A stretch of 64,000 bases of DNA from a virus (IMGVR_UViG_3300035701_000011:33146-97145), one strand, 5' to 3'. Counted from the stretch's first letter, positions 645-53,374 are shown. The notes: generated by a model not told the origin, from the sequence alone. Program-made: numbers and translations.

Positions 645-2477
645 ATGATAACAACCGAACAATTATTCCAGTATCTTGAAAAAAAGATACCTACTTTTGT
701 TAAAACAAGAAAGGCAAAGACAGGCGAGATGCTTTTTACATGCCCAAACATTGCTAATCATAAATTTAAATCGGCTCCTTCTGCAACATTTTCTCCAAGT
801 GGAAATGTTGTATGTCTTATTTGTGGTTGGAAAGGCACAATGTTTGATGCCATTCGCATATTAGAAGAAGATAAGAAAAATAATACAGATGCTGATATTA
901 CTGATTATCTTATTGGTCTTTTACATCTCGATATGTATACTGAATTATCTTTTTATGAAAAGTATGGATTTGCTTTAATTCCTCTTCTTCAAAATTCTAA
1001 AGCAGCATTTGAAAAAGGATGGACAGAATCTCAATATAGAGATAAAGTACATTGGATAAAGTGGTTGAATAATTCTTTAAACATTGGACTTCGGACTGGA
1101 GAAGTTAATGGAATTACAGTCATTGATGCTGATTTTAAAGTTGCACCAATTGGATTTGAAGAAATTTATAAAGAATTAATTGGATTAAATACATTAATGC
1201 AAGATACACCTCATGGGAGACATTTTGTTATTAAGTATGATAAAGATATTCAACAAACTACAAAAATTGCAGGAATACATCTTGATATTCGTAATGATGG
1301 TGGACAGATTGTGGCTGCACCATCTCAAATTGATAATACTTCTTATAAATGGGTTAATTTAGGAATAGAAATTAAAACCATTACTCCAGAATTAAAAATT
1401 AAATTATTAGAATTAATGAAGAAACAAACTAATAATTCTGATAAAATTTCTGATGAAGAATCTTTGAAAGTAAAGAATAACGATTTGGCAGGATGTCGAA
1501 ATGATACGATGGTTTCTATTGGGGGTATGTTGATAAAACAATTAACTCCAGAGCATACCGAATTTGTTCTAAATATTATTAATAGACATCTTTTAGAAAA
1601 ATCAATGCCTTCTCATGAACTCCGAGCAATGATGGGCAGTTTAATGAATTATAAAGGGGATGATGAAGGAACTTATGAACAAACTATATACGATTATATG
1701 AGATTAATGCAGACAGATGTTACACCAAGAGATGTAATAGATAATACTAAATTACCAAGAGCCATTGTTGATAAGTATTTAAGTAAATTTGTTAAAGAAG
1801 GCAAAGCAGTAAGAATGGGAAGAGGTCGTTATCAATATAAAGAAAAAATTGAATGGTCTGATACTATTCCTGAAATGGTAACAGAATATAAATATAAAAT
1901 ACCTTATTTTAATGATATTGCTATTTTTCAGGATAAAGATGTTATTCTTTTGGGTGCCAAAACTAATGATGGTAAAACTACAATAGCATTAAATATGATT
2001 AAAGAAATGATAGTACAAGGAATTAAACCTTATTATATTTATTCAGAAGCTGGTTCAAGGTGGCAGAAAACATCAGAATTTTTAGGTATTACGGGAAAAT
2101 TTTATCGTACTTATCATGAGAATCCATTAGCAATAGAATTAGAATATAATGCTTTTAGTATTATAGATTGGTTACATTTAGAACATAAAGAGCTTACAGA
2201 TACTACATTAAAACATTTGAATGATGAATTACAGAGAAAAGGTGGTATTTTAGTTATTTTTACACAATTAAAAACTACAAATGAATGGTTCGCACCAAAT
2301 TTAATAGACCACTATCCTACATTTGCAGCTAGATACATACAAGATAATGATTCTAAGACTGAAGGGCATTGGGATATTCAGAAAATAAAAGAACCAAGAG
2401 GTAATTTCTGTACATACATTCTTCCTAGTGAATACAATCAAGAAACTCGTATTTTTAAGAAAAAGGATATTATCTAA
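645..2477 (+). CDS. Primase-polymerase (bifunctional prim-pol) fused to PriCT-like, winged-helix and RecA-like helicase domains
   Basis: N-terminal Zn-binding Cys; NIGLRTG, VIDAD, TPHGRH, DIRNDGGQIVAAPS prim-pol motifs; GCRNDT PriCT-like; Walker A GAKTNDGKT; ATG at 645 after GAGG. Confidence 0.8.
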   Translation: MITTEQLFQYLEKKIPTFVKTRKAKTGEMLFTCPNIANHKFKSAPSATFSPSGNVVCLICGWKGTMFDAIRILEEDKKNNTDADITDYLIGLLHLDMYTELSFYEKYGFALIPLLQNSKAAFEKGWTESQYRDKVHWIKWLNNSLNIGLRTGEVNGITVIDADFKVAPIGFEEIYKELIGLNTLMQDTPHGRHFVIKYDKDIQQTTKIAGIHLDIRNDGGQIVAAPSQIDNTSYKWVNLGIEIKTITPELKIKLLELMKKQTNNSDKISDEESLKVKNNDLAGCRNDTMVSIGGMLIKQLTPEHTEFVLNIINRHLLEKSMPSHELRAMMGSLMNYKGDDEGTYEQTIYDYMRLMQTDVTPRDVIDNTKLPRAIVDKYLSKFVKEGKAVRMGRGRYQYKEKIEWSDTIPEMVTEYKYKIPYFNDIAIFQDKDVILLGAKTNDGKTTIALNMIKEMIVQGIKPYYIYSEAGSRWQKTSEFLGITGKFYRTYHENPLAIELEYNAFSIIDWLHLEHKELTDTTLKHLNDELQRKGGILVIFTQLKTTNEWFAPNLIDHYPTFAARYIQDNDSKTEGHWDIQKIKEPRGNFCTYILPSEYNQETRIFKKKDII

Positions 2478-2995
2478 TGAATAATATACATATTGAAATT
2501 TGTCCTTATTGTAATCAAAAAATAGAAGTAAGTTATGGAACTAGACCTTGCCCGAAATGTAATAAATTAATTAACATTTTTCCAGATGATTCAATTATAC
2601 TAAGGAGGATGATAAATGTTGGGATTGGAGAATTATTTACAAAACTTTTTACAAGATAAGAATTTAATTAAAAAATATTTAAAACAAATTAATACTATTA
2701 CATTAATTGAAATTATAAAAATTTTACAAGAAGAATTAAAATTAAGAATTAAAGAATTTGAGACAAAAAAGAATGAATAATCTTATTAAACATATAAATA
2801 AATTAAATAATCTTTATCATTCTTTTAAAAAAAATTATTCTGACATGAAAAAAATGTTTCGCAATCATTCTTGTATTTTACAAAAAATTAAATTATCAGA
2901 AGAAATTTTAATGCAAGCATATATGTTAATTTCAGAAAAAACAGAAGAAACAGAACAACATAGAGAATTTAATAAAATTATAAAAGGGATAAAAA

Positions 2996-3238
2996 ATGAA
3001 AACAAAAATCTATAAAATTAATCCTACTAAGAAACAATTAGCCATAATGAAACTTTATTGGGATATGTTTCAAGCTGAACAAAGTAATTTGTGGATAAGA
3101 ATAGGTGAATTAGAAAGAGAAATGAGCAAGAAAACTGGAATTGAAGAACTTGAATTTTTTCAAGATGATAATGATTGGGTTGGAATAGGTCAGGGAAATA
3201 GAGAAATGAGATTAATTTATGGAGAAGATTTAAAATGA
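2996..3238 (+). CDS. Hypothetical protein
   Basis: ORF coupled to both neighbours; flanked by a degenerate junction repeat. Confidence 0.6.
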   Translation: MKTKIYKINPTKKQLAIMKLYWDMFQAEQSNLWIRIGELEREMSKKTGIEELEFFQDDNDWVGIGQGNREMRLIYGEDLK

Positions 3239-3561
3239 ACACTAAAGATGTAGGAAGAAAACTCGAAGAATATATTCTTGCTAAAGTAAAAGAAATAGAC
3301 CCACAGGCAAGATTAAGTAGAGGGTCTGGTTGTGGCAATGATTATTCCGATATTACAAGTTCACTTTATTTTATTGAGTGCAAGAAACGTAATACAATAG
3401 ATTTTACAATTAAAGAAAGTGTGTGGAATCATCTAAATAATAATTTACCCATTAATACAAAAAAGATTTGTTTTATGGTGCACGAAAATAAGAATGGTAA
3501 ACGATTAGTAACATTGGATGCAGAAGATTTTTTTAGATTATTAAAGGAGAAAAATGAATAA
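3235..3561 (+). CDS. PD-(D/E)XK Holliday junction resolvase (Hjc-like)
   Basis: G..LE, RGSG, SDI, FIECK motifs; 108 aa. Confidence 0.7.
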   Translation: MNTKDVGRKLEEYILAKVKEIDPQARLSRGSGCGNDYSDITSSLYFIECKKRNTIDFTIKESVWNHLNNNLPINTKKICFMVHENKNGKRLVTLDAEDFFRLLKEKNE

Positions 3562-3721
3562 TAAAACATTTTTAAAAATAGATATTGAAACCGATAATGT
3601 CATTATTAATGGTATTTGTATGAATGATGGAACCTTATTATGTAATTTAGGTTATGCTTGTGATTGCTGTCCTTATAATTATGACCCAGAAGTAGAAGAA
3701 CGCTTACAGGTGGGATTATAA
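3554..3721 (+). CDS. Small Cys-rich protein (55 aa, ends EERLQVGL)
   Basis: Translated by hand; AAGGAG RBS; TAATG overlap with the next ORF. Confidence 0.6.
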   Translation: MNNKTFLKIDIETDNVIINGICMNDGTLLCNLGYACDCCPYNYDPEVEERLQVGL

Positions 3722-3873
3722 TGTTACATATTACTTATTGTTATAAAGAGGATTCTGAAGTTACTTACGAAGCAAGTTGTGAAAAATGTGTTTATTTTAC
3801 TCATTTTGTGCAATTGTCTGTAGATTGGTTTGAATGTACTTATTTAGAAGAACGTTTACAAACAGGATTATAA
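3721..3873 (+). CDS. Small Cys-containing protein (50 aa, ends EERLQTGL)
   Basis: Translated by hand; coupled to the previous ORF. Confidence 0.6.
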   Translation: MLHITYCYKEDSEVTYEASCEKCVYFTHFVQLSVDWFECTYLEERLQTGL

Positions 3874-4412
3874 AATGGATTATTTTATAGATTTAATATT
3901 TGTAATAATAATAGGAATTGGTGTAGGAATAATTATTAGTAAATTATTACTTTTAATACCGATAGGATAATTATGAAAAAATTATGTAATACATGTAAAA
4001 ATTGGACAAGATATTTAAAATTAGAAGATAACTGTTTATGTTCAATTCAATCAAGAAGTATGACTGATATTTATACAAATGCTAGAGATTCATGTGGACT
4101 ATATAAAAAATGGGAACATAATTTTAAAAAATTTAGAAATAGTATTAAACCTAAAATAAAAATAATATGAAAAATAAACTAAAAATAAAAGAACCTATCT
4201 GGATTTCTCGTAGCGTGGGTATTGCTGCCAAAAGAGCATTTGCAGACCTTGAGATACAAATTATGTATAAGGACTCTTATGGTAATAAAGTTTATCCTGC
4301 TCTTTATAAAATTGCAAAAGAAAAGATTATAACATATCCATATAGATATATTGGTGGTAATAGAATTTATATAGTACCTATAAAAGATTTAACAATTATA
4401 AAGGAGAGATAA

Positions 4413-4532
4413 ATGGACTATTGTGGAAGTTGCGATATTGCGTATGAAGGAAGAGATTGTCCACTTTGTGAAGCAATGAAAGAAATAGAGGAATTGAAAA
4501 AAGAAATAGAAAGAATAAATAATTTAGAATAG
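4413..4532 (+). CDS. 39-aa Zn-finger/coiled-coil peptide (paralog of 23391-23510)
   Basis: MDYCGSCDIAYEGRDCPLCEAMKEIEELKKEIERINNLE; AAGGAG RBS. Confidence 0.7.
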   Translation: MDYCGSCDIAYEGRDCPLCEAMKEIEELKKEIERINNLE

Positions 4533-4540
4533 GAGTAAAA

Positions 4541-4789
4541 ATGTCAAGAACTAAGAAGTATATTTACGGAAGAAATAATACAATACATCGTACTAAATTA
4601 TTAAATATAGAAGTAGATAAAAGAACAGGTGAGATAGTTTCAGTATGGTTTAGATGTATGATTCTTCCCTTTGATGTAACAAAAATAGATAAAAATAGAG
4701 CAAATGAAATGAGAAGAGTATATAAAGAAAATGAGATAATACAAATAAATGCTATAGAAATAGAGGAGGTTATAGATGGGAAGAACTAA
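4541..4789 (+). CDS. Hypothetical protein
   Basis: AGGAG RBS; starts MSRTK, like the downstream RecA (MGRTK). Confidence 0.6.
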   Translation: MSRTKKYIYGRNNTIHRTKLLNIEVDKRTGEIVSVWFRCMILPFDVTKIDKNRANEMRRVYKENEIIQINAIEIEEVIDGKN

Positions 4790-5792
4790 AGGTGCAAAAG
4801 GTAAAAAGAATAAAGCAGAAATTGCATTAGAAATTGTTAGAAAACAAGAATGTTCACCAGTAAATGAACATTCACAAATAGTGAACAATCCTTTAATAGA
4901 AAAAAATAATATACAAATCTCTCAAGAAAGAAAAGATAAATTAAATCAAACTCTGAGGGAGATTAATAAAATTATTCCTGATTCTGTTAAGTATGCTAAA
5001 GATATTGAAGTTAAGGAGAGGCAATCCTTTGGTTATAAATGTCTTGATAAATTAACAGGCGGTGGCATAATTAGAGGTAATTTTACGACTATTTGGGGGT
5101 CAAAAGCATGTGGAAAAAGTACAATTGCTTATAAAATGATTGCAACAGCCCAAAAAGAAGGTAAAATAGCAACTTATTTGGATATTGAGAGGTCTTACGA
5201 CCCCCTATGGGCTGCAAAATTTGAAGTAAATGTAAACGATTTAGTTATTGTGAATATAGAAACAGCAGAACAAGCATTAGATACAATTATAAAATTATGC
5301 CGAGAGGATGTTATTGATTTGATTGTTTTGGATAGTATTCAAGGTCTTACACCGAAACAAGAAAATTATGCTGGTAAAGGAGAAAAAGAAAGGTCTGTGG
5401 AAGACGATAGTATGGCATTACTTGCCCGTAAACTTTCACAATTTTTTAGAATGGCTGCTGCTCCAGTTTCTAAGGCTAAATGTGCAATATTATTGATTGG
5501 GCAAGCACGAATGGATTTATCATCATTTATTAAGTTAGAAACCTTATCAGGAGGTCATGCTTTGTTACACAATAGTCGTTTAATTTTAAGATGTAGAAGA
5601 GGACAGGGTGCAGATGCTCCCACAGAAAAAAAAGAAACAGGAAAAATAACAGAAAAAGGTAAACCAGAAATGAAATCTGTACCAATAGGATTTGATTGTG
5701 TTATTCATGTAAATAAATCACAGATACAAGGATGTACAGAAGGTGATGAAATACACGTACCCTTCTATTATAAGGATGGAATAAAAGAATGA
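4776..5792 (+). CDS. recA: RecA-family recombinase
   Basis: LDKLTGGG, Walker A GSKACGKS, YLDIE, Walker B VLDSI, ARKLSQ, GGHAL. Confidence 0.9.
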   Translation: MGRTKGAKGKKNKAEIALEIVRKQECSPVNEHSQIVNNPLIEKNNIQISQERKDKLNQTLREINKIIPDSVKYAKDIEVKERQSFGYKCLDKLTGGGIIRGNFTTIWGSKACGKSTIAYKMIATAQKEGKIATYLDIERSYDPLWAAKFEVNVNDLVIVNIETAEQALDTIIKLCREDVIDLIVLDSIQGLTPKQENYAGKGEKERSVEDDSMALLARKLSQFFRMAAAPVSKAKCAILLIGQARMDLSSFIKLETLSGGHALLHNSRLILRCRRGQGADAPTEKKETGKITEKGKPEMKSVPIGFDCVIHVNKSQIQGCTEGDEIHVPFYYKDGIKE

Positions 5793-6057
5793 AAAAAATA
5801 GGTATTTTTAAAATTTATTTTTATCCTTTAACAATTACTGGATTTGGAATTCATGCCGATTACAAATTATTAGAAATTAGTTTGATTTGGTATAATTTAA
5901 TTATTGATTGGGATGAGGAAGAAAATGGATAACTTCACTTTAGATAAATGTTCAGTTTGTGGTGAACATAAGGCATTGAAGAATGGTGTATGTGTTGATT
6001 GTGATAAGAAGAATGATATGCCTAATTTTTTAAAAGATTTATTTGGAGGATTTAAAA

Positions 6058-8822: not shown

Positions 8823-10435
8823 TAGCCAAAATTAAAGAAAACGATTTAAAAGCATTTCAGGTCTTATCTCATCCGATAAGTGCGTCTCAAATTCTTTTCC
8901 ATGATTTTGATTCATTAGGAACGTGGGATAAAGAAAAATTTGGACATATTCGTGTTTATCAGTATCCTATGATGTCATTTGATAGTTTATTTTTATATGA
9001 TAAGAAATTATCTAAAGAAAAGAATTGGGAAATTAAAAATAATTTAGCTGAAAATTATAATCTTGGGGGGAGACTTACTGGAAAATCAGCAATTTCTATT
9101 CTTATAGATTCTATAGTTGGCACTTTTAATAAAGTTTATACTTGGACTGTAATTAGTTCCTATGATAAGTTACATCTACAAGAAATCTTTGAAAAAATGA
9201 TTAATTGTTTTGAAAATCATAAAATAATGAGAATTTTAAATGTACATCCGTTAAGAAGTCCTACTTTTAAATTAAATTTTGCAAACGGATGTTTATTAGA
9301 AAGTGTAAATATGAATATTGCCAGCAAAAATCCAGGTGGTCAATTCTTTGGTAAACATTTTGGAAGACACTATATGGAAGAATCTTCGTATTTAACTAAA
9401 GAAGTTTCTGGAAAAATGCTTATGGCACAATCAGAACAAGGTTGTATAAATCGTTTTTCTGGTATGACTACATTTACAAAAACATCTCCAGTAGGCGAAA
9501 TATTTTTTGATTTAAAAAACAAAAAAAAGATTATTAATCTTCCTTCCTATATTAATCCTACTTGGAATGATAAAAAAGAAGCAGATGCTATAAAAGAATT
9601 TGGTGGTAAGGATTCTCCTGGTTATCAAGTACAGATTGATGGTAAGGTTATTGAAGGTGCCGAAAGTGTTTTTGATATTCAAAGAATTAGGCAAACTTAT
9701 TTAGTAGATAAAAAAGGCAATCCTATTTCTATTAAAGCATTTGAAGTAAATAAAGATAGTTTTTTTAGATATAAAGAAATTGTTATTGTTGAGAAACCTG
9801 TTAATGCTGAATTTTTAGGAATCTATGCAGACATTGGCGAGGGTGGGGCAGCATCTGAATATATTATTATTTCAAAAACAAATCAAATTTATAGATATAT
9901 ATATCGTATCACTACATTTCAATTATCACCCGAAGAAGAAAAAGAATTTCTCGGATATTTAATTAGTCTTTTACTACCTAATATTATAGGGTTGGATAAT
10001 ACTTCTGGAGTAGGCAAGGCATTGATAAGTGCATTAAGAAAAGATTATCCTGATAATGTTATTCCCGTTTCGTTTAATGAAAACATTCAAATTGGATTAG
10101 CCAGAGATAAAGATGGAAAATTTATTACAGATAAATCAGGGCAGATTGTATATGAAGAAGCCAATATGGTAGATTGGAGTATGCAGAGATTAAAAGATAT
10201 TTTCTATAGTAAAAAAATACAGATGTTGGAAGATATAAAATTCGATACAGAAATTAATAATGTTATTGTTGGAAGAACAAAACAAGGTAAGGTCATGTAT
10301 GGTTATAAAGTGGCTAACCATTTATTTCAAGCCTTTCAAGTATTTGCAATTTGTGATTGGTTAAAAGAGGGTTTACCTAATTTAAAACCCATTAAAAAAC
10401 GTCGCCCTGGGTTTGGGAGTTTCGGAAATGCATAA
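8819..10435 (+). CDS. terL: Terminase large subunit
   Basis: RVYQ, Walker A GGRLTGKS, Walker B-like YMEES, motif III GMT, nuclease ADIG and GLDNTSGVG. Confidence 0.7.
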   Translation: MIAKIKENDLKAFQVLSHPISASQILFHDFDSLGTWDKEKFGHIRVYQYPMMSFDSLFLYDKKLSKEKNWEIKNNLAENYNLGGRLTGKSAISILIDSIVGTFNKVYTWTVISSYDKLHLQEIFEKMINCFENHKIMRILNVHPLRSPTFKLNFANGCLLESVNMNIASKNPGGQFFGKHFGRHYMEESSYLTKEVSGKMLMAQSEQGCINRFSGMTTFTKTSPVGEIFFDLKNKKKIINLPSYINPTWNDKKEADAIKEFGGKDSPGYQVQIDGKVIEGAESVFDIQRIRQTYLVDKKGNPISIKAFEVNKDSFFRYKEIVIVEKPVNAEFLGIYADIGEGGAASEYIIISKTNQIYRYIYRITTFQLSPEEEKEFLGYLISLLLPNIIGLDNTSGVGKALISALRKDYPDNVIPVSFNENIQIGLARDKDGKFITDKSGQIVYEEANMVDWSMQRLKDIFYSKKIQMLEDIKFDTEINNVIVGRTKQGKVMYGYKVANHLFQAFQVFAICDWLKEGLPNLKPIKKRRPGFGSFGNA

Positions 10436-11075
10436 ATTAAAAGTATGTTCAAAATGTAAAAAAGAATTGAATATTAATAATTTTACAATAGATAATAGAG
10501 CTAAAGATAAATTATTAGGTTATTGTAAACAATGTGTTAAAGATTATCAAATTTTACATAAAAAAGAAAGAAAGATATATTTGGAAAATAATAAACAAAA
10601 ATTTATTTGTTACAGGAAAAAATATTATCAAATAAATAAAGAAAAAGCAAAACAATATTATCAGGAACATAAAATAGAAGTTATTCAAAAACATAAAAAT
10701 TATTATGAAAAAAACAAAGAAAAAATTTTATATCGTATTAAAATTTATCAAAATAAAAAAATAAAAATAGATATTAATTTCCGATTAGCTGCTTATCTAA
10801 GAACAAGAATTTGGCATGCTCTTAAAGGCAATCCTAAATTATCTACAACTATGAAATTGGTAGGATGTAATATTAAACAATTAAAACATCATCTTGAAAA
10901 ACAATTTATTAAAGGAATGACGTGGAAAAATTATGGTAAGTGGGAAATAGACCACATAAGACCTTGTGCTTCTTTTGACCTTAGCAAACCAAGTGAACAG
11001 AAGAAATGTTTTTATTATAAGAATCTTCAGCCTTTATGGAAAGAAATAAATAGACGTAAACAAGGAAAAATATAA
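10428..11075 (+). mobile_element. Free-standing HNH homing endonuclease (family A), between terL and polB
   Basis: N-terminal CSKC...CKQC, Lys/Tyr helical repeats, WEIDHIRPCASFDL...NLQPLW. Confidence 0.85.
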
Positions 11076-13144
11076 TGTTATCATTTGGAGTAACAAATAT
11101 TGCCAATGTTGGTCGGGAGATATATGTCTGGTATCGCATAGACAAGACTCTATCTTGTTTTAAGGATTCTACTTTTCGACCTTACTTTTATCAGATTTCT
11201 CCAAATGGTATTTACAAAACAATTGATGGCAAAAAAGTAGAAAAAATAATATGTAGTAGACCTTCAGATGTTAAGAATCGCAGAGACGAAGGAAGTTATG
11301 AAGCTGATATACTTTTCACGAAACGATATATAATAGATAAGATTACTAATTTTAATAAAATAGACCTACATTGGTCTTTTATAGACATTGAAGTACTTTG
11401 TAAAGAACTTCCTAATTATCTCAACCCATCTCAGCCTATCTCTTGTATTTCATGTTCTAATTCTTATACTGGGGAAATTAAGACTTTCTTTTTATTAGAT
11501 TATTATGATTCTGTAAAATCAGATGTTCCTCTTGCAGAGAATAAAGATTGGATTGAAATTGCAGAGGAAGAATTATTAAATGATTTTGTAAAATGGACAA
11601 AAGAACAACAATTTGATTTGGTATTGGGATGGAATTTTATTGAATTTGATTGGCTTTATCTTTGTGCTAGATATAAGAAAATATTTAGTTGTGAATTAGC
11701 AGAAATGTTAAGTCCAATAGCACAATCAAAATATTTAGGAAGTTCTCAAAAAGTGGAACCTACATTAATTCCTGCTGGATTAAGTGTATGCGATTATTTT
11801 GATATGTATAAAAAGATTTATCGCACAGAACCATCTTATGCTTTAGATATAATTGCTCAAAAGCGTTTAAATGAACAAAGTTTTAAAAAGGTAGATTTTA
11901 GTAGATTAATTCCAGAAATAAAGGAAAAGAATATAAATGATGTTAAAAGAATGATAGATATTGAAAAGAAATTAAAAATAATTGAATACTATGATGAACT
12001 TAGGCGAATGTCTATGTGTGAATGGAGTGATGTTACCTGGAATTCTAAAATGATAGATATGATTCTTCTTAGAGAAGCTAAACAAAAAGGAATAATACTT
12101 CCCTCTAAACATTACGGTGAAGGATTAGAAGTCGATGAAATCGGATTTGAAGGAGCCTATAGAAGATGTGATACTGGTCTTTATAAAGGTCTTTGGAAAC
12201 TTGACCTTTCCTCTGCTTATCCAATGGCAATAATTAATTTCTGCCTGGATATTTCAAACATTAAAAATGAAGGAATTACCATAAACATGGTAAAGTTTTA
12301 CCAGAATGAAAATGCTCTTCTTCCCACAATAGCCAGAAAATTAATTAGTAAGAAAGATATTTTAAAAGCACAATTAAAATCTTTAAATCCAGAAACTGAA
12401 GAAGCCAAAGATTTACAAATTAAATATGATGCAATTAAAGCGGTTGTTAATTCTCTTTTTGGAGTGTGCGGACTAAAGATTTTTAGATTGTTTGATTATA
12501 GAGTTGCTGCAAGTATTACATTTTTAATTAGAGATTTATTGCATTATGTAGAAGATAAATTAATAGAAAAAGGAATGAAAGTAATTTATATAGATACAGA
12601 TTCATTTTTTATAGATGCAAAAGAAAATCCTAAAGATTTATGTAATGAACTAGTCAAACAATGGGCAAAAGAAAAATATAACAAGGATAAGATTGGTATC
12701 GAATTTGATTTAGAAGGTAAGTTTGATAAGATTTTTATAATTGCTCTGTGCCATTATAAAGGATATTTAAATACACCAAGGGGTGTAAAAGAAGAAATAA
12801 AAGGTATAGAGGCTCGTAGGAAGGATAGTTCTAATTTTATTAGAGAATTCCAGACTAATCTTATTGAAAAAATAATGAATGAAAAGCCACAAGAAGAAAT
12901 AATTAAATGGATTAATTTAGAAAAAGAACGAATTAAAACATTACCCCTGCAAGATATTGGATTTCCTGCAAGATTAACAAAACAAGATGGAGAGTACAAA
13001 ACTATAGTAACAAATGCTAAAGGAACAACTTATAATAGAAAGTTACCAATTCATATCCAAGCAAAAAATAATAGCAAAAAAATATTTGGAAAATTTGATA
13101 AGCAATTGGGTGATAATTATTGGTGGATTTATTATGTGGACTAA
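11075..13144 (+). CDS. polB: Family B DNA polymerase, large N-terminal fragment
   Basis: Exonuclease DIE and GWN...FD; polymerase DLSSAYP, KAVVNSLFG, YIDTDS, KGIEARRKD; ends inside the thumb (WWIYYVD*). Confidence 0.92.
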   Translation: MLSFGVTNIANVGREIYVWYRIDKTLSCFKDSTFRPYFYQISPNGIYKTIDGKKVEKIICSRPSDVKNRRDEGSYEADILFTKRYIIDKITNFNKIDLHWSFIDIEVLCKELPNYLNPSQPISCISCSNSYTGEIKTFFLLDYYDSVKSDVPLAENKDWIEIAEEELLNDFVKWTKEQQFDLVLGWNFIEFDWLYLCARYKKIFSCELAEMLSPIAQSKYLGSSQKVEPTLIPAGLSVCDYFDMYKKIYRTEPSYALDIIAQKRLNEQSFKKVDFSRLIPEIKEKNINDVKRMIDIEKKLKIIEYYDELRRMSMCEWSDVTWNSKMIDMILLREAKQKGIILPSKHYGEGLEVDEIGFEGAYRRCDTGLYKGLWKLDLSSAYPMAIINFCLDISNIKNEGITINMVKFYQNENALLPTIARKLISKKDILKAQLKSLNPETEEAKDLQIKYDAIKAVVNSLFGVCGLKIFRLFDYRVAASITFLIRDLLHYVEDKLIEKGMKVIYIDTDSFFIDAKENPKDLCNELVKQWAKEKYNKDKIGIEFDLEGKFDKIFIIALCHYKGYLNTPRGVKEEIKGIEARRKDSSNFIREFQTNLIEKIMNEKPQEEIIKWINLEKERIKTLPLQDIGFPARLTKQDGEYKTIVTNAKGTTYNRKLPIHIQAKNNSKKIFGKFDKQLGDNYWWIYYVD

Positions 13145-13679
13145 AGAAGATTGGAAACAATACGCAAAAGAATATTATCAATTATATAAGAAAAAAATTC
13201 TTTTAATTCGAAAAATTTATAATAAAATTCATAAAAAAGAAATTGCTTTATATAAAAAAGAGTATGACCAACTAAATAAAGAAAAAATAAGTTTACAAAG
13301 AAAAAAGTATTATCAAGACCATAAAAAAGAAACCATCGAACAAGATAATGTTTACAAATATAATAGGTACCATAGAGATATTAATTTTAGAATACGAATT
13401 TGTCTTAGACAAAGATTGCGAAAAGTATTAAAAAAAATTCATAAATCTACTTCCATATTGAAATTAATTGGTTGTTCTTTAAAAGAATTAAAACAACATT
13501 TAGAATCACAGTTTTTAAAAAATATGTCGTGGTCTAACTATGGATTGTGGCACATAGACCATATTAAACCTTGTGCTTCATTTGATTTGCGAAAAAAGTC
13601 AGAACAACGCAAATGTTTCCATTATACTAACTTACAACCTCTGTGGGCAGTTGATAATTTAAAAAAAGGAGCAAAATAA
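13134..13679 (+). mobile_element. HNH homing endonuclease (family A) inserted in polB
   Basis: ATG at 13134 overlaps the polB end; WHIDHIKPCASFDL...NLQPLW; TAATG overlap with the next ORF. Confidence 0.88.
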
Positions 13680-13867
13680 TGATTCCAATTGCTTTTGATG
13701 AAAATACTATAGATTTATTAGATAAAACAAAAATTGCTTGGACTAAAATGATAGAAAGAAGTATAATTTCAAAGGTTGAACATATTTTTTTAGCATTAAA
13801 ATGGGATTTATCACTTATTAAGGAAATTAAACCTAAAAAAGAAAGAAAAAAGAAATGCATTATATAG
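13679..13867 (+). CDS. polB: Family B DNA polymerase, C-terminal thumb fragment
   Basis: IAFDE...IAWTKMIERSI..KVEHIFLALKW resembles the PolB C-terminal pattern that is missing from the upstream ORF. Confidence 0.7.
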   Translation: MIPIAFDENTIDLLDKTKIAWTKMIERSIISKVEHIFLALKWDLSLIKEIKPKKERKKKCII

Positions 13868-14604
13868 TTAGTTATTCAGGTGGAAAAGATTCAACTGCGA
13901 TGCTTATAAGACTTATAGAAGAAAAAAGACCTATAGATGAAATTTTATTTTTTGATACAGGATGGGAATTTTCTGCTATTTATTCTACAGTTAAAAAAAT
14001 CGAAGAATATATTAAAAGACCTATTGTTTGGCTTAAACCTGAAAAATCTTTTGAATGGTACATGTATCAGAAATCAAATAAACGTGGATTAGGTTTAGGA
14101 TTTCCTCGATTTAATATTCGTTGGTGTACAGGTTTAAAGAAAAATACGATTAAAACATATTTAAAAGATAAAAAACCATATATTAACTATCTCGGTCTTA
14201 CTAAAGGAGAAGAATATAGAGCAAAAAGATATGCAGATGATAAAACAATATTACTTCCTTTAATTGAATGGAAAATGACAGAACAAGATTGTTTAAATTA
14301 TTGTAAAAATAAAGGATTTGATTTTGAAAATCTTTATAGTTGTATGAGTAGTGCTTCATGTTGGTGTTGTCCTTTGCAACCTATGACATCATTAAGAGGT
14401 TTATATAAAAATTTTCCCGATTTATGGAAAAAATTATTAGAAATGCAATCTAAAACTAAAAGTGCTTTTAAAGTGGGTCATATTAATAATAAAAAAGGAA
14501 AAGATAGATTTCCTCCAATTTATGTTACAGATTTAGATATTCGTTTTAAAAAAGAAATAGAAGATGGAACATTTAATAAAAAAATGCAAAAGAAAAATGA
14601 CTAA
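13855..14604 (+). CDS. PAPS-reductase-family (PP-loop) protein 1
   Basis: SYSGGKDS, FDTG.E, RWCT..KK, SCWCCP. Confidence 0.85.
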   Translation: MHYIVSYSGGKDSTAMLIRLIEEKRPIDEILFFDTGWEFSAIYSTVKKIEEYIKRPIVWLKPEKSFEWYMYQKSNKRGLGLGFPRFNIRWCTGLKKNTIKTYLKDKKPYINYLGLTKGEEYRAKRYADDKTILLPLIEWKMTEQDCLNYCKNKGFDFENLYSCMSSASCWCCPLQPMTSLRGLYKNFPDLWKKLLEMQSKTKSAFKVGHINNKKGKDRFPPIYVTDLDIRFKKEIEDGTFNKKMQKKND

Positions 14605-15568
14605 TAAAATTCAAATCTGGGAATTAAAACAAAGACAGTCATTACCTTTAGAAGCTAAAATAACTTTGGCTAAAACAAGAATAGAACAATTTCATACAAA
14701 AATGGATGGTAATGTATGTGTATCTTTTTCTGGAGGTAAGGATAGTACCGTTCTTCTTCATTTAGTAAGGTCAATTTATCCAGATGTTAAAGCAGTTTTT
14801 GTTAATACAGGACTAGAATGGCCGGAAGTGGTGCAATTTGTCCGAGAAACTGAGAATACAGAGATTATACGTCCCGAGATGACTTTTAAAGAGGTCTTAG
14901 ATACTTATGGTTATCCAGTTACTAGCAAAAAGATTGCCAAAATGATTGATACTCTACAAAATCCCACAAAAGGAAATAAAGTTATTAGAAATCTTTATTT
15001 AACAGGTATTAGGGGAGATGGCAAAAAAGCAACTGGAAGTTGGAAGGTACCAAAGAAGTGGAGATTTTTAATTAAGGCTCCTTTTAAAATTTCCGACCAA
15101 TGTTGTGCAGTTATGAAAAAACAACCATTTAAAGAGTATACTAAAAAGACAGGATTACACCCCTATGTTGGCACACAAGCAGCAGAAAGTAGATTAAGAG
15201 AAATTTCTTATTTACAGTATGGATGTAATTCTTTTAAAGGTAAGATTCAATCCAGACCTTTAAGTGTTTGGTTTGAAGATGATATTTGGACATATATTAA
15301 GAAGTTTAATTTAAAGTATGCTACCATCTATGATAAAGGTCAGAAAAGAACTGGATGTATGTTCTGTATGTTTGGTACACATTTGGAAGATGAACCAAAT
15401 AAATTTCAATGTATGGCAAAGACACATCCGCAACTTTGGAATTATTGTATTAATGAAATAGGTGTAGGTAAAGTATTAGATTATATTAATGTACCTTATA
15501 AATTATTAGAAAATAGTACAAATGATGGACAACCTGACCATGAATTACCAATTCATGAACTGGAGTAA
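14597..15568 (+). CDS. PAPS-reductase-family (PP-loop) protein 2
   Basis: SFSGGKDS, NTGLEWPE, CCAVMKK, ES..R, RTGCMFC. Confidence 0.85.
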   Translation: MTNKIQIWELKQRQSLPLEAKITLAKTRIEQFHTKMDGNVCVSFSGGKDSTVLLHLVRSIYPDVKAVFVNTGLEWPEVVQFVRETENTEIIRPEMTFKEVLDTYGYPVTSKKIAKMIDTLQNPTKGNKVIRNLYLTGIRGDGKKATGSWKVPKKWRFLIKAPFKISDQCCAVMKKQPFKEYTKKTGLHPYVGTQAAESRLREISYLQYGCNSFKGKIQSRPLSVWFEDDIWTYIKKFNLKYATIYDKGQKRTGCMFCMFGTHLEDEPNKFQCMAKTHPQLWNYCINEIGVGKVLDYINVPYKLLENSTNDGQPDHELPIHELE

Positions 15569-19404: not shown

Positions 19405-20184
19405 ATGATAATTAAATCCTTAAAGATTAATAATCTACAACTTATCAAATCAGCTCAGGTTAATTTTGATAAGATTAATATTATTTCTGGAATAAATAAA
19501 GATAATCCTTCCGAAAGTGGTAATGGGTCTGGTAAGTCTACTTTTGTTTTGCGTGCCATTTTATTTTGTCTCTACGGGTATTGCGAGGAAGGTCTAACCC
19601 TCAAAGATTTAATTCGCTTTGAAGAAAAAGAATGTTCAGTTACTTGTGAAATAACCAATAACAATGAACATTACAGAATAATAAGAAAAATACCTAGTGA
19701 ATTACAACTTTTCCTTAATGATAAGGAAATTCAAGCAAATACCGCAACTATTAAACAAAATTTAATAAACGAATATTTTGGTGATGTTAGTTTTTTCAGA
19801 CAATATAGATGTGTTGATTTAAAGAATGGAATAAATGTTTTAGATATGGGTATTGTATCTCTTCGCAAGACATTAATGAGTTTTATAGAAGGTATCTTTA
19901 CTGAAATAAGAACTCGATTATTGGCACAAAAAGTAGAAAGAGAAAGGTATTCAATTGATAAAAAATTATTCAAAAATTTCCTCTCAGAGAAGCGATTAAA
20001 TATCTTAAATGCTTCATTAATTGAAGCAAAAACTGATTATCAACGATTTGAAAAAGAAAGAGATATACAACAAAATATTATTAATAAAATCAAATCAGAA
20101 ATACAATCAAGAGAACAAATTATCTATTATAAAAAATCAGAATTAGAAAAATTAAAAAAAGGACAATGTCCTATAATAAAATGA
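19405..20184 (+). CDS. sbcC: SbcC/Rad50-like ATPase, N-terminal half
   Basis: IKSLKINN, Walker A GNGSGKS, coiled coil, ends GQCPIIK*. Confidence 0.85.
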   Translation: MIIKSLKINNLQLIKSAQVNFDKINIISGINKDNPSESGNGSGKSTFVLRAILFCLYGYCEEGLTLKDLIRFEEKECSVTCEITNNNEHYRIIRKIPSELQLFLNDKEIQANTATIKQNLINEYFGDVSFFRQYRCVDLKNGINVLDMGIVSLRKTLMSFIEGIFTEIRTRLLAQKVERERYSIDKKLFKNFLSEKRLNILNASLIEAKTDYQRFEKERDIQQNIINKIKSEIQSREQIIYYKKSELEKLKKGQCPIIK

Positions 20185-20852
20185 ACAAATGTATAATTTG
20201 TAAAGAAAAATTTCAACCAAATAGTAATAATCAAAAATGTTGTTCAATTGACTGTTATAAAATTCATAAGAACAACTATCAAATAATTTATCGCAGTAAC
20301 AGGAACCAAGAAAAGAAAATGATTTGTTTGATTTGTAAAAATGAATTTATTAAGATTGGTAATCAAATATGTTGCAGTAAAAAATGTTCTACTATTAATA
20401 AAAAAGAGAAACATATAATTTATCGATTAAATCATAAAAAAGTAAAAGAAATTTATGATAATAATTATCGGCAAATTCATAGAATAGCAATAAATGAATC
20501 ACATAAAAAACGTTTTGAATCTGATATTAATTTTAGAATAATGTGTAATTTAAGAAGTAGATTACTTTCAGCAATTAGGGGTAATCCAAAATTAGAAACT
20601 ACTACAAAATTAGTTGGATGTAGTATAGATAAATTTAAGAAACATCTTGAAAAACAGTTCAAAATAGGGATGAATTGGAATAATTGGGGTAGGGGTTGGA
20701 GTGGAATGGGCATGAAAGAATGGCATATAGACCATATTATTCCTTGTTGTCAATTTGATTTAACGAAAAAATTGGAACAAAAGAAGTGTTTTCATTATAC
20801 TAATCTTCAACCTCTGTGGGCAATAGAAAACATGCAAAAAAGGAAAAAATAA
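20181..20852 (+). mobile_element. HNH homing endonuclease (family A) inserted in sbcC
   Basis: Two CxxC...CS..C Zn modules; WHIDHIIPCCQFDL...NLQPLW; ATGA and TAATG overlaps. Confidence 0.88.
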
Positions 20853-21544
20853 TGGAATGTCCTATTCTAAAAGAAAAATATAACCTAATATATAAAGAAA
20901 AAGAGCAAGAAATTTTAAAATTAAATGAAGAGATTAACGATTATAAGAAACAATTAGAATTAGAACAAGATTCTATTTCTTATTATAATGATATGTTGGA
21001 ATCAATTCGCAATAAAGAAGAAAAAGTACGACAAAAATTAACACAATTAAAGTCTGCATTTCAATTTGCTGATTATAAATATACTAAAGCCGACATCGTA
21101 ATCTATGATGAAGCGGTAAAAATTTTAGATACATTTGCTGGTGAATATATAAAGGAATGGTTATCTTCTCTTTCAGTAATTATAAATAACCTTCTTCAAC
21201 CTATAAATATTTCAGTAGAGTTTACTGCGGATAAAGATTTTTTACATGTTTATGATAATGAACAAATGTTAAAGTATGACCAATTATCGAAAGGTCAGAA
21301 GACATTTTTGGGGTGTTTATTTAAATTTGCTATCTTAATGCAGCAAAATAAATCGGGGATAGTGATTTTAGACGATGGACTCAATGATATTGATTGGATT
21401 AATTTTAAAAATTTAATAAATATAATTAAAACTCTTCCCTTTCAAGCAATCTGTGTGTATCAGGGATTGCAAGAAAAAATAGAAGATACAAAACATTTTT
21501 TAGTTATAAGAGAAAAAGGAATTTCAAATGTTAAAACTGAATAA
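20852..21544 (+). CDS. sbcC: SbcC/Rad50-like ATPase, C-terminal half
   Basis: Starts MECPILK; coiled coil; ABC signature LSKGQK; Walker B VILDD. Confidence 0.85.
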   Translation: MECPILKEKYNLIYKEKEQEILKLNEEINDYKKQLELEQDSISYYNDMLESIRNKEEKVRQKLTQLKSAFQFADYKYTKADIVIYDEAVKILDTFAGEYIKEWLSSLSVIINNLLQPINISVEFTADKDFLHVYDNEQMLKYDQLSKGQKTFLGCLFKFAILMQQNKSGIVILDDGLNDIDWINFKNLINIIKTLPFQAICVYQGLQEKIEDTKHFLVIREKGISNVKTE

Positions 21545-23514: not shown

Positions 23515-24102
23515 ATGCCATATAAAAATAAAAAAGTTAGAACTAAATACCATAAAATATATTATTCGAAGCATAAAGATAAAATTTTAAGAATTGCAAA
23601 AAAATACATAAAATTACATAAAATAAAAGTTTCTATTTATCAAAAAAATTATCGCAAGAAGCATAAAGAAAAAATTAAACAATATAATGAACAACATAAG
23701 AAAAAAATTAATTTACAGATGAGAAAATGGAGAAAAGAAAATAGAAAAAAGATAACTCATTATATCAGGCAACGTAGAAATAATAATTTAGATATTAAAT
23801 TAAAAGATTATTTAAGAAATAGATTATATCAAACTTTAAAAGGACTTTATAAATCTAAATCAATTTTAAAATTACTCGGTTGCTCTATTAATTTTTTAAA
23901 AAATCATTTAGAAAAATTATTTGCTAAAGGTATGAATTGGCAAAACTATGGTAAGTGGCATATAGACCACATCAAGCCTTGTGCTTCATTTGACTTGAGC
24001 AAACCCGAAGAGCAACGTAAGTGCTTTCATTATAAAAATCTTCAGCCCTTATGGGCGAAAGAAAATTATATTAAACACGATAACATTATAAAAGAGGAAT
24101 AG
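23515..24102 (+). mobile_element. Free-standing HNH homing endonuclease (family A)
   Basis: WHIDHIKPCASFDL...NLQPLWAKEN. Confidence 0.88.
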
Positions 24103-43569: not shown

Positions 43570-44145
43570 TTATTCTCCTAAAATCTTGTCGTTCTTACTT
43601 AAGTTATCAAACGCCCATAAAGGTTGAAGATTAGTATAGTGAAAACATTTACGTTGCTCTTTAACTTTACTTAAATCAAACGAAACACATGGTCTAATAT
43701 GGTCAATATGCCAAAGACCATAATTATTCCAGGTCATACCTAATTGAAACTTAGATTGTAAATGATTCTTTAATTGTTCTACATTGCACCCTAATAATCT
43801 CATGGTAGATTCTGATTTGGAGATTCCTTTTAATACTTTATAAATTCTAATTCTTAAATTAACAATAATTTTATTTTTTATTTTTCTATAGTATTTTAGA
43901 TTATAAGAAATTCTTTTTTCTCGATTATTATAATAATTTTTTTTAGCCCATTCTCTTGCTTTTTCATAATTATCATAATAATACTTCAAACTATAATCAT
44001 TTACTTCTTTTTTATGAGATTCTCTATATTTTTTCTTATATTGTTTAATTTCTTCAGCATGTTCTTTTCTGTATTCAGAATTTCTTTTATTTAATTCATC
44101 TTTATGTTTTTGATAATATATTTTTCTATATTCTTTTATATCCAT
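43570..44145 (-). mobile_element. Free-standing HNH homing endonuclease (family A)
   Basis: WHIDHIRPCVSFDL...NLQPLW; start MDIKEY at 44145. Confidence 0.88.
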
Positions 44146-44146
44146 T

Positions 44147-44602
44147 TTAATCACCGATAATCCAATTACCTTGTTCATCTATGATAAGTATTATTTTCTG
44201 ATTTTTTCCATCTTTAAGCCATTGTAAACCCAAATGATATTCTATTGTATGAGATTTTTCTTTTAAATCTTGGGTTCCTATTTCTACTTTATGCCTACGG
44301 AAGAATACTAATCTACAATTTTCTTTTTTTTGTTCTGTTTCTATATAAGGAAATTCTAATCTATTATAACCAATAAGTCCGTTTGTTAAGTTTACACTAA
44401 ACATCTTACCATTGTTATTTGTTAAATTAAAATAAACTAAATCATTAAATTTTTCTTGTACTTCTCTGAATTGATGCTCTATACCGTTTTTGTCAAATTG
44501 AAAAATATGAGTACCATCTTTGAAAATTGCGTTCCAATAAAAAGATAGCGAATTCATTGAATTGTTTCCGCCATTAATATTTATGTCCATTGTATTGTCC
44601 AT
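44147..44602 (-). CDS. Hypothetical tail-module protein
   Basis: ORF and context. Confidence 0.55.
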   Translation of the reverse strand: MDNTMDININGGNNSMNSLSFYWNAIFKDGTHIFQFDKNGIEHQFREVQEKFNDLVYFNLTNNNGKMFSVNLTNGLIGYNRLEFPYIETEQKKENCRLVFFRRHKVEIGTQDLKEKSHTIEYHLGLQWLKDGKNQKIILIIDEQGNWIIGD

Positions 44603-52822: not shown

Positions 52823-53374
52823 TTACTTTATCTTTTGTTTAGGTTTGCTTAAATTATCTTTTGCCCATAAGGGTTGAAGATTTGTATAACGGAAACATTT
52901 CTTCTGTTCACTTGGTTTACTAAGGTCAAAAGAAGCACAGGGTTTTATATGGTCTACATGCCATTTACCATAATTAGACCAAGTCATACCAGATTGAAAC
53001 TTAGATTGTAAATATTCTTTTAATCGTTCCACAGAACAACCGACTAATTTCATAGTAGTAGATGATTTGGGATTATTTTTTAATACCAAATATAATCTAG
53101 TTCTTAAATTGCATAAAATTTTAAAATTTATATTTGTAGACCTTTTAATTCTATAATATTTAGTTATTTTATTAAGTATAGATTTTTTATTTTTTAGATA
53201 GTATTTTTTCTTTTTAGCCAAAATTTGTTCTCTGTGAGTTTCATAATATTTTTTATCAACTTTAACACATTTTACTTTATTTATTTTTACATATTCTTTT
53301 CTTTGCAACAAAAGTTTAATTCTATTTTTTAAATAATAAGCCTTCTGATATTCTTGTTTATTAAATTTTTTCAT
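52823..53374 (-). mobile_element. Free-standing HNH homing endonuclease (family A)
   Basis: WHVDHIKPCASFDLSKPSEQKKCF...NLQPLW. Confidence 0.88.

Follow-up and report, generated by a model that had tools for sequence, protein, structure and literature searches.

A probable intron-less homing cassette splits the family B DNA polymerase gene of a metagenomic phage near the end of the thumb

Introduction

How a phage could make its replicative DNA polymerase when the polymerase gene is divided by a gene of another kind is the question raised by a 64,000-nucleotide stretch of DNA from an uncultured sediment phage, part of the virus record IMGVR_UViG_3300035701_000011 (positions 33146–97145; hereafter the window, with coordinates counted from its first letter). 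In the window, a family B DNA polymerase gene (polB) breaks off in the thumb domain and is followed by an HNH-like endonuclease gene and by an open reading frame (ORF) of 62 residues, which an earlier reading of the same DNA, made from the sequence without database searches (the sequence-only reading), had proposed as the missing C-terminus of the polymerase. The best explanation, to which we give a probability of roughly 0.8, is that an intron-less homing cassette occupies polB and that the polymerase works as a two-chain enzyme without covalent joining. The locus is made up of the following features.

11075–13144, + strand: polB-N, family B DNA polymerase fragment of 689 residues (ORF, Pfam, PHROG)
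13134–13679, + strand: free-standing HNH-like (His-Me finger) endonuclease gene, 181 residues (ORF, motif, PHROG 1035)
13665–13671, + strand: AAAGGAG, Shine-Dalgarno-like, read in the sequence 7 nt 5′ of the polB-C ATG, with a presumed function in initiation
13679–13867, + strand: polB-C, 62 residues (aligned to unsplit C-termini; stand-alone homologues)

Results

A polymerase gene in two open reading frames

PolB-N comprises the N-terminal, exonuclease, palm and fingers domains and the thumb in large part. It matches PF03104 (E = 1.3e-17) and PF00136 (E = 1.9e-25), both better than the curated cut-offs, as well as PHROG 262 (E = 1.5e-85), and carries the catalytic motifs A (DxxSxYP, as DLSSAYP) and C (DTDS, as YIDTDS); D377, Y382, P383, D507, T508 and D509 are invariant in a 37-sequence PolB alignment. 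Direct reading places its last residues, GDNYWWIYYVD, before a TAA stop at 13142–13144, and since the Pfam match covers positions 12–376 of the 453 in the DNA_pol_B profile, the C-terminal portion is absent from this ORF. PF00136 is the sole polymerase family found in the 97,145-bp virus record, which has direct terminal repeats and in which PolA and DnaE were not found.

The endonuclease ATG (13134) lies 11 nt within polB-N in frame +1, and its TAA stop (13677–13679) shares its final A with the first base of the polB-C ATG (TAATG; ATG at 13679–13681). The Shine-Dalgarno-like AAAGGAG is encoded by the final codons of the endonuclease gene, and the polB-C frame holds no start codon earlier than this ATG. 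The insert between the two polymerase ORFs (13145–13678, 534 nt) is wholly occupied by the endonuclease ORF, and the polB frame meets about 30 stop codons across it. A terminator scan found no + strand terminator between polB-N and the 62-residue ORF, and the parts are presumably co-transcribed; promoter-like matches are frequent in the AT-rich DNA of the locus and were given no interpretation. An upstream in-frame ATG at 13014 was considered as the endonuclease start and is less likely, as paralogues align from 13134; the region that begins there is a 44-codon open stretch, the longest in that polB frame, where others reach 34–37 codons. The gene limits of the sequence-only reading all agree with the ORF map and the raw sequence. 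The split arrangement was also seen in two other assembled contigs (L012 and L086) and in bridging contigs, with three further sediment runs represented; it is therefore no assembly artefact.

The small ORF and the C-terminus of unsplit polymerases

Of 5.8 billion proteins searched, 211 were recovered as homologues of PolB. Close homologues are mostly single chains of 750–770 residues, the final ~55 of which align with the 62-residue ORF (e.g., ...VLCYDED..WEKIINKSIIDKVEHIFLALKWDLSLIKEIKPKKER...), with I29, K32, A39 and W42 invariant in the alignment to uninterrupted C-termini; in the unsplit homologue P0010 the ORF corresponds to residues ~706–760. By tblastn, it matches 14 unsplit loci with E-values from 1e-6 to 3e-15. 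A minority of homologues (P0001–P0004, P0053, and P0067; 664–689 residues) stop where PolB-N of the window stops (..WIYYVD or ..WIYYEE), and a second search recovered stand-alone small ORFs (P0122–P0127; 61–106 residues) with 68–97% identity to the 62-residue ORF. W21, I29, K32, F37, A39 and W42 are common to the stand-alone C-fragments and the fused C-termini. No match to the ORF was found among GenBank phages by tblastn, and nothing meaningful in Pfam and PHROGs. Judged by its alignment to the C-termini of unsplit homologues, the ORF is the C-terminus absent from PolB-N, as had been proposed. It contains the last β-strand of the thumb (IPIAF), a C-terminal helix (WTKMIERSIISKVEHIFLALKW) and a conserved basic tail, and the thumb domain is complete only once it joins PolB-N.

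Position of the break in the thumb

The location of the break was read from an AlphaFold2 model of the unsplit relative P0010 (predicted local distance difference test, pLDDT, 87), which resembles RB69 gp43 and KOD polymerase (template modeling scores 0.74–0.76). The thumb of P0010 ends with a strand (663–669, FYWIPV), a long β-hairpin (674–704), a second strand (707–710, VLCY) and a helix (723–742); residues 707–742, the equivalent of polB-C, are modeled as strand plus helix with pLDDT ~87–93. The break falls between the two strands, in place of the hairpin. Split alleles are without this 37-residue β-hairpin, PolB-N stopping after the first strand and PolB-C opening with the second (IPIAF), and PolB-N of the split type has an extra 14 residues (TIVTNAKGTTYNRK) ~30 residues upstream of its C-terminal end. 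The model and the alignments thus agree with the sequence-only reading that PolB is split within the thumb; the end of the thumb is remodeled, more than interrupted. A prediction of the complex between PolB-N residues 330–689 and the 62-residue fragment scored 0.68, with one control at 0.50, and was not used as evidence.

Elsewhere among the homologues, the N-fragments P0009 and P0034 end ...CFDDTEESQQIIER, shortly past the CFDD strand, and the terminal helix is absent from the same ORF. Two stand-alone ORFs of 49–54 residues, P0128 and P0129, begin (M[DN]KV.IDWDKIIDKS) exactly at this end point, which suggests a second split site, not loss. These four sequences may represent a second, independent split of the thumb ~10–15 residues further on.

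Comparison of split and unsplit alleles

DNA is available for three split loci: the window, L012 (IMGVR_UViG_3300031952_000004, 109.6 kb) and L086 (Ga0315288_10001632, 29 kb), the latter two with the arrangement of the window; more diverged split alleles are known from proteins. PolB-N of the window is 72% identical in protein sequence to that of L012 and 83% to that of L086, and the endonucleases are 98.9% identical in both. Comparison of the three loci with one another and with unsplit alleles defined two further features.

12941–13795, no strand assigned: near-identical tract between the window and L086 and, to ~13740, L012 (sliding-window identity)
12985–13783, no strand assigned: heterologous cassette core of 799 bp, without DNA similarity to unsplit alleles; ~303 bp in L001

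In two independent sliding-window comparisons, DNA identity jumps from ~0.6–0.9 to 0.97–1.00 within ~12941–13795; outside this tract, polB of the window, L012 and L086 is 72–85% identical. The tract can be read as a co-conversion tract left by a recently spread cassette. The limits of the core were set by blastn of the window against the unsplit alleles L001, L002, L006, L007, L009 and L010: homology ends at 12967–12984 and resumes at 13784 in four of the six, the more distant L007 and L010 giving short right-flank matches only (from 13772 and 13729). A 799-bp core therefore replaces ~303 bp of the unsplit gene. Contigs of other alleles in the sediment runs skip from 12945 to 13783 and from 12967 to 13787. 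The site is polymorphic for presence and absence, with seven split alleles against dozens of contiguous ones. A polB tree restricted to residues 1–615, which lie outside the cassette, spreads the seven split alleles over its branches, with unsplit relatives next to each, and 7 changes are required; a single clade of split alleles is rejected (approximately unbiased test, p = 1.3e-51). Scans of viral contigs with P0004, P0034 and the C-fragment alignment yielded no additional split loci. Such a pattern is what intron-less homing accompanied by co-conversion leaves behind, and the history of the split is both old (the diverged thumbs of P0053 and P0067) and marked by very recent transfers.

The split might instead be ancestral to one lineage and have spread by ordinary homologous recombination, with the endonuclease a later passenger and not the driver. 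The diverged split-type thumb of P0067 (PolB 56% identical) shows that the split is old; the endonuclease is documented in three DNA-level loci only, the diverged split alleles being known as proteins; and for gene 43 of phage 25, invasion of a pre-split gene by an endonuclease is considered possible (PMC2988022). A passenger role is nevertheless unlikely: in all three loci with DNA, the near-identical tract takes in the endonuclease gene, whose own identity is 98.9%, and the endonuclease family, with six junction copies in the window and ~66 viral relatives, is typical of active free-standing homing endonucleases.

These comparisons also bear on the proposal of the sequence-only reading that the endonuclease gene lands in a tolerant loop. 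The insertion site does lie in the thumb, but there was no simple landing, since a cassette of ~800 bp with diverged flanks replaces ~300 bp. One tentative idea, which we consider possible but doubtful, is that the flanks form a “prosthetic” thumb module (the 14-residue insert TIVTNAKGTTYNRK, the loss of the hairpin and the new chain ends) that would make the split tolerable.

One chain or two

PolB-N might be sufficient alone, with the 62-residue ORF decaying or repurposed and the thumb tolerating the loss of its last strand and helix. PolB-N retains every catalytic motif, and P0009 and P0034 are also without the terminal helix in the same ORF. Intact stand-alone C-fragments, however, occur in at least six diverged lineages and keep the invariant residues of the fused type; P0124–P0127 (68–85% identical) retain the invariant residues of the family, and diverged split alleles retain both ORFs (N-ends P0003, P0004, P0053 and P0067; C-fragments P0124–P0127). 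In the unsplit model, moreover, the terminal helix is predicted confidently and appears integral to the thumb, and the truncation of P0009 and P0034 is matched by the stand-alone P0128 and P0129. There is little to recommend a polymerase made of PolB-N alone. Because both fragments are conserved and working splits of other enzymes have been published (see Discussion), a two-chain enzyme is favored.

Tests for intron, intein and ribosomal bypass

The sequence-only reading had offered two outcomes for the split gene, a two-chain enzyme or rejoining at the RNA or translation level; only the first finds favor, as no signal for splicing or bypass was found. Rejoining could take the form of a cryptic self-splicing intron, trans-splicing or ribosomal bypass of the 534-nt insert, and some features would suit it: polB-N and the 62-residue ORF share a frame (534 nt = 3 × 178), and their flanks can pair across the insert. 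A shared frame is expected by chance in one of three cases. An Rfam search of 10000–15000 at E ≤ 10 found no group I or group II intron, with only sub-threshold chance matches to small nucleolar and long non-coding RNAs; the entire insert is protein-coding, which leaves no space for a ribozyme core, and the RNA fold across it is no stabler than that of shuffled sequences (z = +1.38). Pfam found no intein or Hint domain in the locus, and the PolB-N end and the PolB-C start align residue by residue to contiguous PolB, with the endonuclease gene in another frame, so that a “fractured gene” with split inteins is excluded. The statement that neither intron nor intein is present is thus borne out by Rfam, whose covariance models gave no cryptic self-splicing intron, by Pfam and by the coding insert.

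A take-off and landing pair of the gene 60 type is likewise absent from the junctions (GAC TAA ... AAA TAA TGA TTC), no GAC preceding the 62-residue ORF, and the gap of 534 nt is tenfold the ~50 nt of T4 gene 60. The C-fragment has its own Shine-Dalgarno-like sequence and ATG. In other lineages, C-fragments start 8–9 codons earlier (P0124 and P0126) and N-fragments end ..YYEE; no exact junction is therefore kept, which argues against mechanisms that require one.

The pairing of the flanks involves the following repeat.

13100–13109, + strand: left arm of an inverted repeat, AAGCAATTGG; the right arm, CCAATTGCTT, is at 13685–13694, 4 nt past the polB-C ATG

This 10-bp pairing, which the sequence-only reading had reported correctly, is present in the minimum free energy and centroid folds, and complementary 8-mers are enriched between the flanks (13 observed vs. 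2.8 expected, p ~0.003). It is, however, one of 16 inverted repeats of at least 9 nt in that 1 kb, two others being perfect 11-mers; in L012, changes without compensation disrupt two of the three nested helices; and the count of complementary 8-mers reaches 8 in the unsplit allele L010. The pairing was accordingly not accepted as a sign of function and is probably incidental; as a weaker addition, it might link the translation of the small fragment with that of PolB-N. Taken with the absence of splicing and bypass signals, this makes any rejoining of the two ORFs very improbable. The least probable explanation of all is that the split polB is dead in a defective or misassembled phage genome replicated by a host or helper polymerase: the record is metagenomic and, by CheckV, 59% complete, and the window has six HNH paralogues, but the record also has direct terminal repeats, the arrangement recurs in independent assemblies and runs with both ORFs intact in all copies, and the polB-N proteins of split alleles are 72–83% identical to one another with no frame disruptions.

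The endonuclease family

In its N-terminal part the endonuclease consists of a helical repeat rich in Lys and Tyr; the motif WHIDHIxPC...NLQPLW...N..K lies in the C-terminal part. Among 16 homologues, conservation is complete at D142, H143, P146, N166, Q168, P169 and L170, and 90% or more at H140 and N175. PHROG 1035, “endonuclease VII”, is matched with E = 8.8e-8 (8.7e-14 for a paralogue); the PDB gave no relevant endonuclease match by sequence or profile, and matches in the ESM Atlas were confined to viral “hypothetical” clusters, with a single HNH-labeled neighbor (0.89) that serves as a lead only. Some 66 relatives were found in viral contigs. The window itself holds six copies, each at or within gene junctions; the five besides the polB-splitting copy are 43–51% identical to it.

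10413–11075, + strand: HNH-like paralogue (220 residues; Cys-rich module at the N-terminus) that occupies the terminase-polB junction
20166–20852, + strand: paralogue
23515–24102, + strand: paralogue
43570–44178, – strand: paralogue
52823–53374, – strand: paralogue

The core genes that these paralogues adjoin are terminase/polB, sbcC, peptide deformylase, tail fiber-like and capsid-like genes, and their N-termini consist of 15-residue Lys/Tyr helical repeats, with Cys-rich modules in two copies. The paralogue at the terminase-polB junction makes the polB neighborhood a hotspot for the family. This junction, which is a second hotspot, has a family homologue in L007 and nothing in most relatives; L086 has there an unrelated HNH gene (L086:1590–2159, 189 residues, HHKIP motif).

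An SbcC/Rad50-like ATPase gene is split likewise (19405–21544): an N-half (19405–20184; Walker A, ending ..GQCPIIK) is followed by the paralogue at 20166–20852 and by a C-half (20816–21544; Walker B, ..MECPILKEK), and CPI[IL]K flanks the insert on both sides. The parallel that the sequence-only reading drew with sbcC is real at the level of ORF arrangement.

Other features of related loci

PolB itself varies further among the relatives. In L012, the thumb split of polB (2276–5560; polB-N of 1094 residues) is accompanied by an intein that has a LAGLIDADG-type domain and interrupts the exonuclease domain (...FDLLC|LDENTK...THN|CGWNF...); inteins are also found in P0019, P0040, P0060, P0065 and L009. 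The distant relative L019 (35–38% identical) shows a PolB match in two frames (4001–5898), with a break of 14 nt near motif A (query residues 371 and 377) for which a frameshift, an error of sequencing and a further split are all conceivable. The PolB ORF extends into extra C-terminal domains in L013 (955 residues) and in L014 and L018 (1260 residues); P0068 carries an HD domain (PF01966), and a separate ORF of HD-like type lies 5′ of polB in L012.

Directly 3′ of polB-C, at 13855–15568, lie tandem 3′-phosphoadenosine 5′-phosphosulfate (PAPS) reductase/PP-loop-like genes (PF01507; PHROG 424). The 3′ end of polB-C overlaps the first of them by 13 nt, and L086 is without these genes here. The pair may be a DNA-modification module.

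Discussion

The cassette proposed here would consist of the diverged end of PolB-N, the HNH-like gene and the diverged start of PolB-C. In a co-infection, the endonuclease would cut polB alleles that are without the cassette, and repair off the cassette-bearing allele would transfer the ~800-bp core, the crossovers falling in conserved sequence immediately beyond its ends. PolB would then be made as two polypeptides that assemble non-covalently: IPIAF, the strand of PolB-C, would lie paired with YWWIYY, the final strand of PolB-N, at the site of the long β-hairpin of unsplit enzymes, and the PolB-C helix would complete the thumb. A role of the PolB-C tail as clamp binder would be speculation only; the record yielded no family of the β-clamp, PCNA or gp45 type.

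Several points weigh against this explanation. That the two chains assemble and are active is what we infer from homology and precedent, and cleavage of unsplit polB by the endonuclease is a prediction that draws on the motif and PHROG 1035. The earlier designation of the gene as HNH agrees with these two, but the Pfam HNH family (PF01844) is matched faintly (E = 0.057, in two of 16 members only), no NCBIfam model is matched, and the AlphaFold2 model of the endonuclease has pLDDT ~45–55 over the catalytic part; with no firm support from curated HNH profiles, the PDB or AlphaFold2, “HNH-like” is a motif-level label and the activity a presumed one. The CheckV completeness of the record, 59%, leaves some room for a second polymerase. 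Lastly, the three DNA-level copies of the cassette are nearly identical, which makes selection on the junction signals unreadable.

Essential phage genes that a free-standing homing endonuclease has split and that go on working in pieces are already known as a kind. Gene 43 of Aeromonas phages 25 and 44RR is split into 43A and 43B (Petrov, Ratnayaka and Karam, 2010, via PMC2988022); in phage 25 the parts are separated by a free-standing homing endonuclease gene, and the products co-purify and are active. The intervening element in these systems is a seg-like (GIY-YIG) gene or an untranslated spacer. As with 43A/43B, a phage family B replicative polymerase is encoded here in two ORFs, but the endonuclease is HNH-like and the phage group is unrelated to T4-like phages (PolB ~24% identical to T4-like gp43). 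The 43A/43B break lies, we presume, well upstream of the thumb, whereas here it is near the C-terminal end and leaves a 62-residue fragment. In phage Aeh1, nrdA is split by mobE and the split NrdA is active, and mobA in gene 39/60 of T4 is another case of “genes in pieces”; in systems of the Aeh1 type the fragments reassemble into active enzyme, and sequence borne by the element aids assembly (PMC2988022; PMC3045599). Both in Aeh1 and here an HNH-type free-standing endonuclease splits the gene of an essential enzyme; the host gene is a different one, and the evidence here is comparative (co-conversion tract and tree incongruence).

Other systems resemble the locus in part. The PolB of phage PhiKZ is a stable heterodimer of DNAP-N and DNAP-C from two genes (PMC13648687), but it is split in a palm insertion, by two distant genes and without an endonuclease, whereas here the thumb is split and the parts are adjacent, with an endonuclease gene. 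SegF, SegG and other endonucleases of the T-even phages practice intron-less homing by double-strand-break repair with co-conversion of flanking markers (PMC2988022). As with these, the endonuclease gene here lies between or within conserved genes; their types are usually intergenic, whereas this cassette interrupts a coding sequence and has remodeled coding flanks. In the “fractured genes” of metagenomes, often replication genes, split inteins flank a free-standing endonuclease gene (PMC2677866); the host gene is here too in two ORFs around an endonuclease gene, but no intein halves are found at this locus. New are the site at the end of the thumb with a 62-residue subunit, the endonuclease family, the phage group and the evidence, at the level of populations, that a remodeled coding segment travels with the endonuclease.

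The locus adds a well-documented natural case of a replicative family B polymerase that probably tolerates a break very near its C-terminus (~60 residues away), where unsplit enzymes have a defined thumb hairpin; such a case is useful for designing split polymerases and for learning how the thumb is put together. If the second split is true, the end of the PolB thumb would be a recurrent natural split point, and if the cassette flanks do form a prosthetic module, the cassette could enter any polB in this group of phages without lethal effect. For annotation, PolB calls of ~680 residues in this phage group are not truncated, and the small ORF downstream is best labeled as the second subunit. 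A homing cassette is here caught in the act from metagenomes alone, with sharp recombination end-points.

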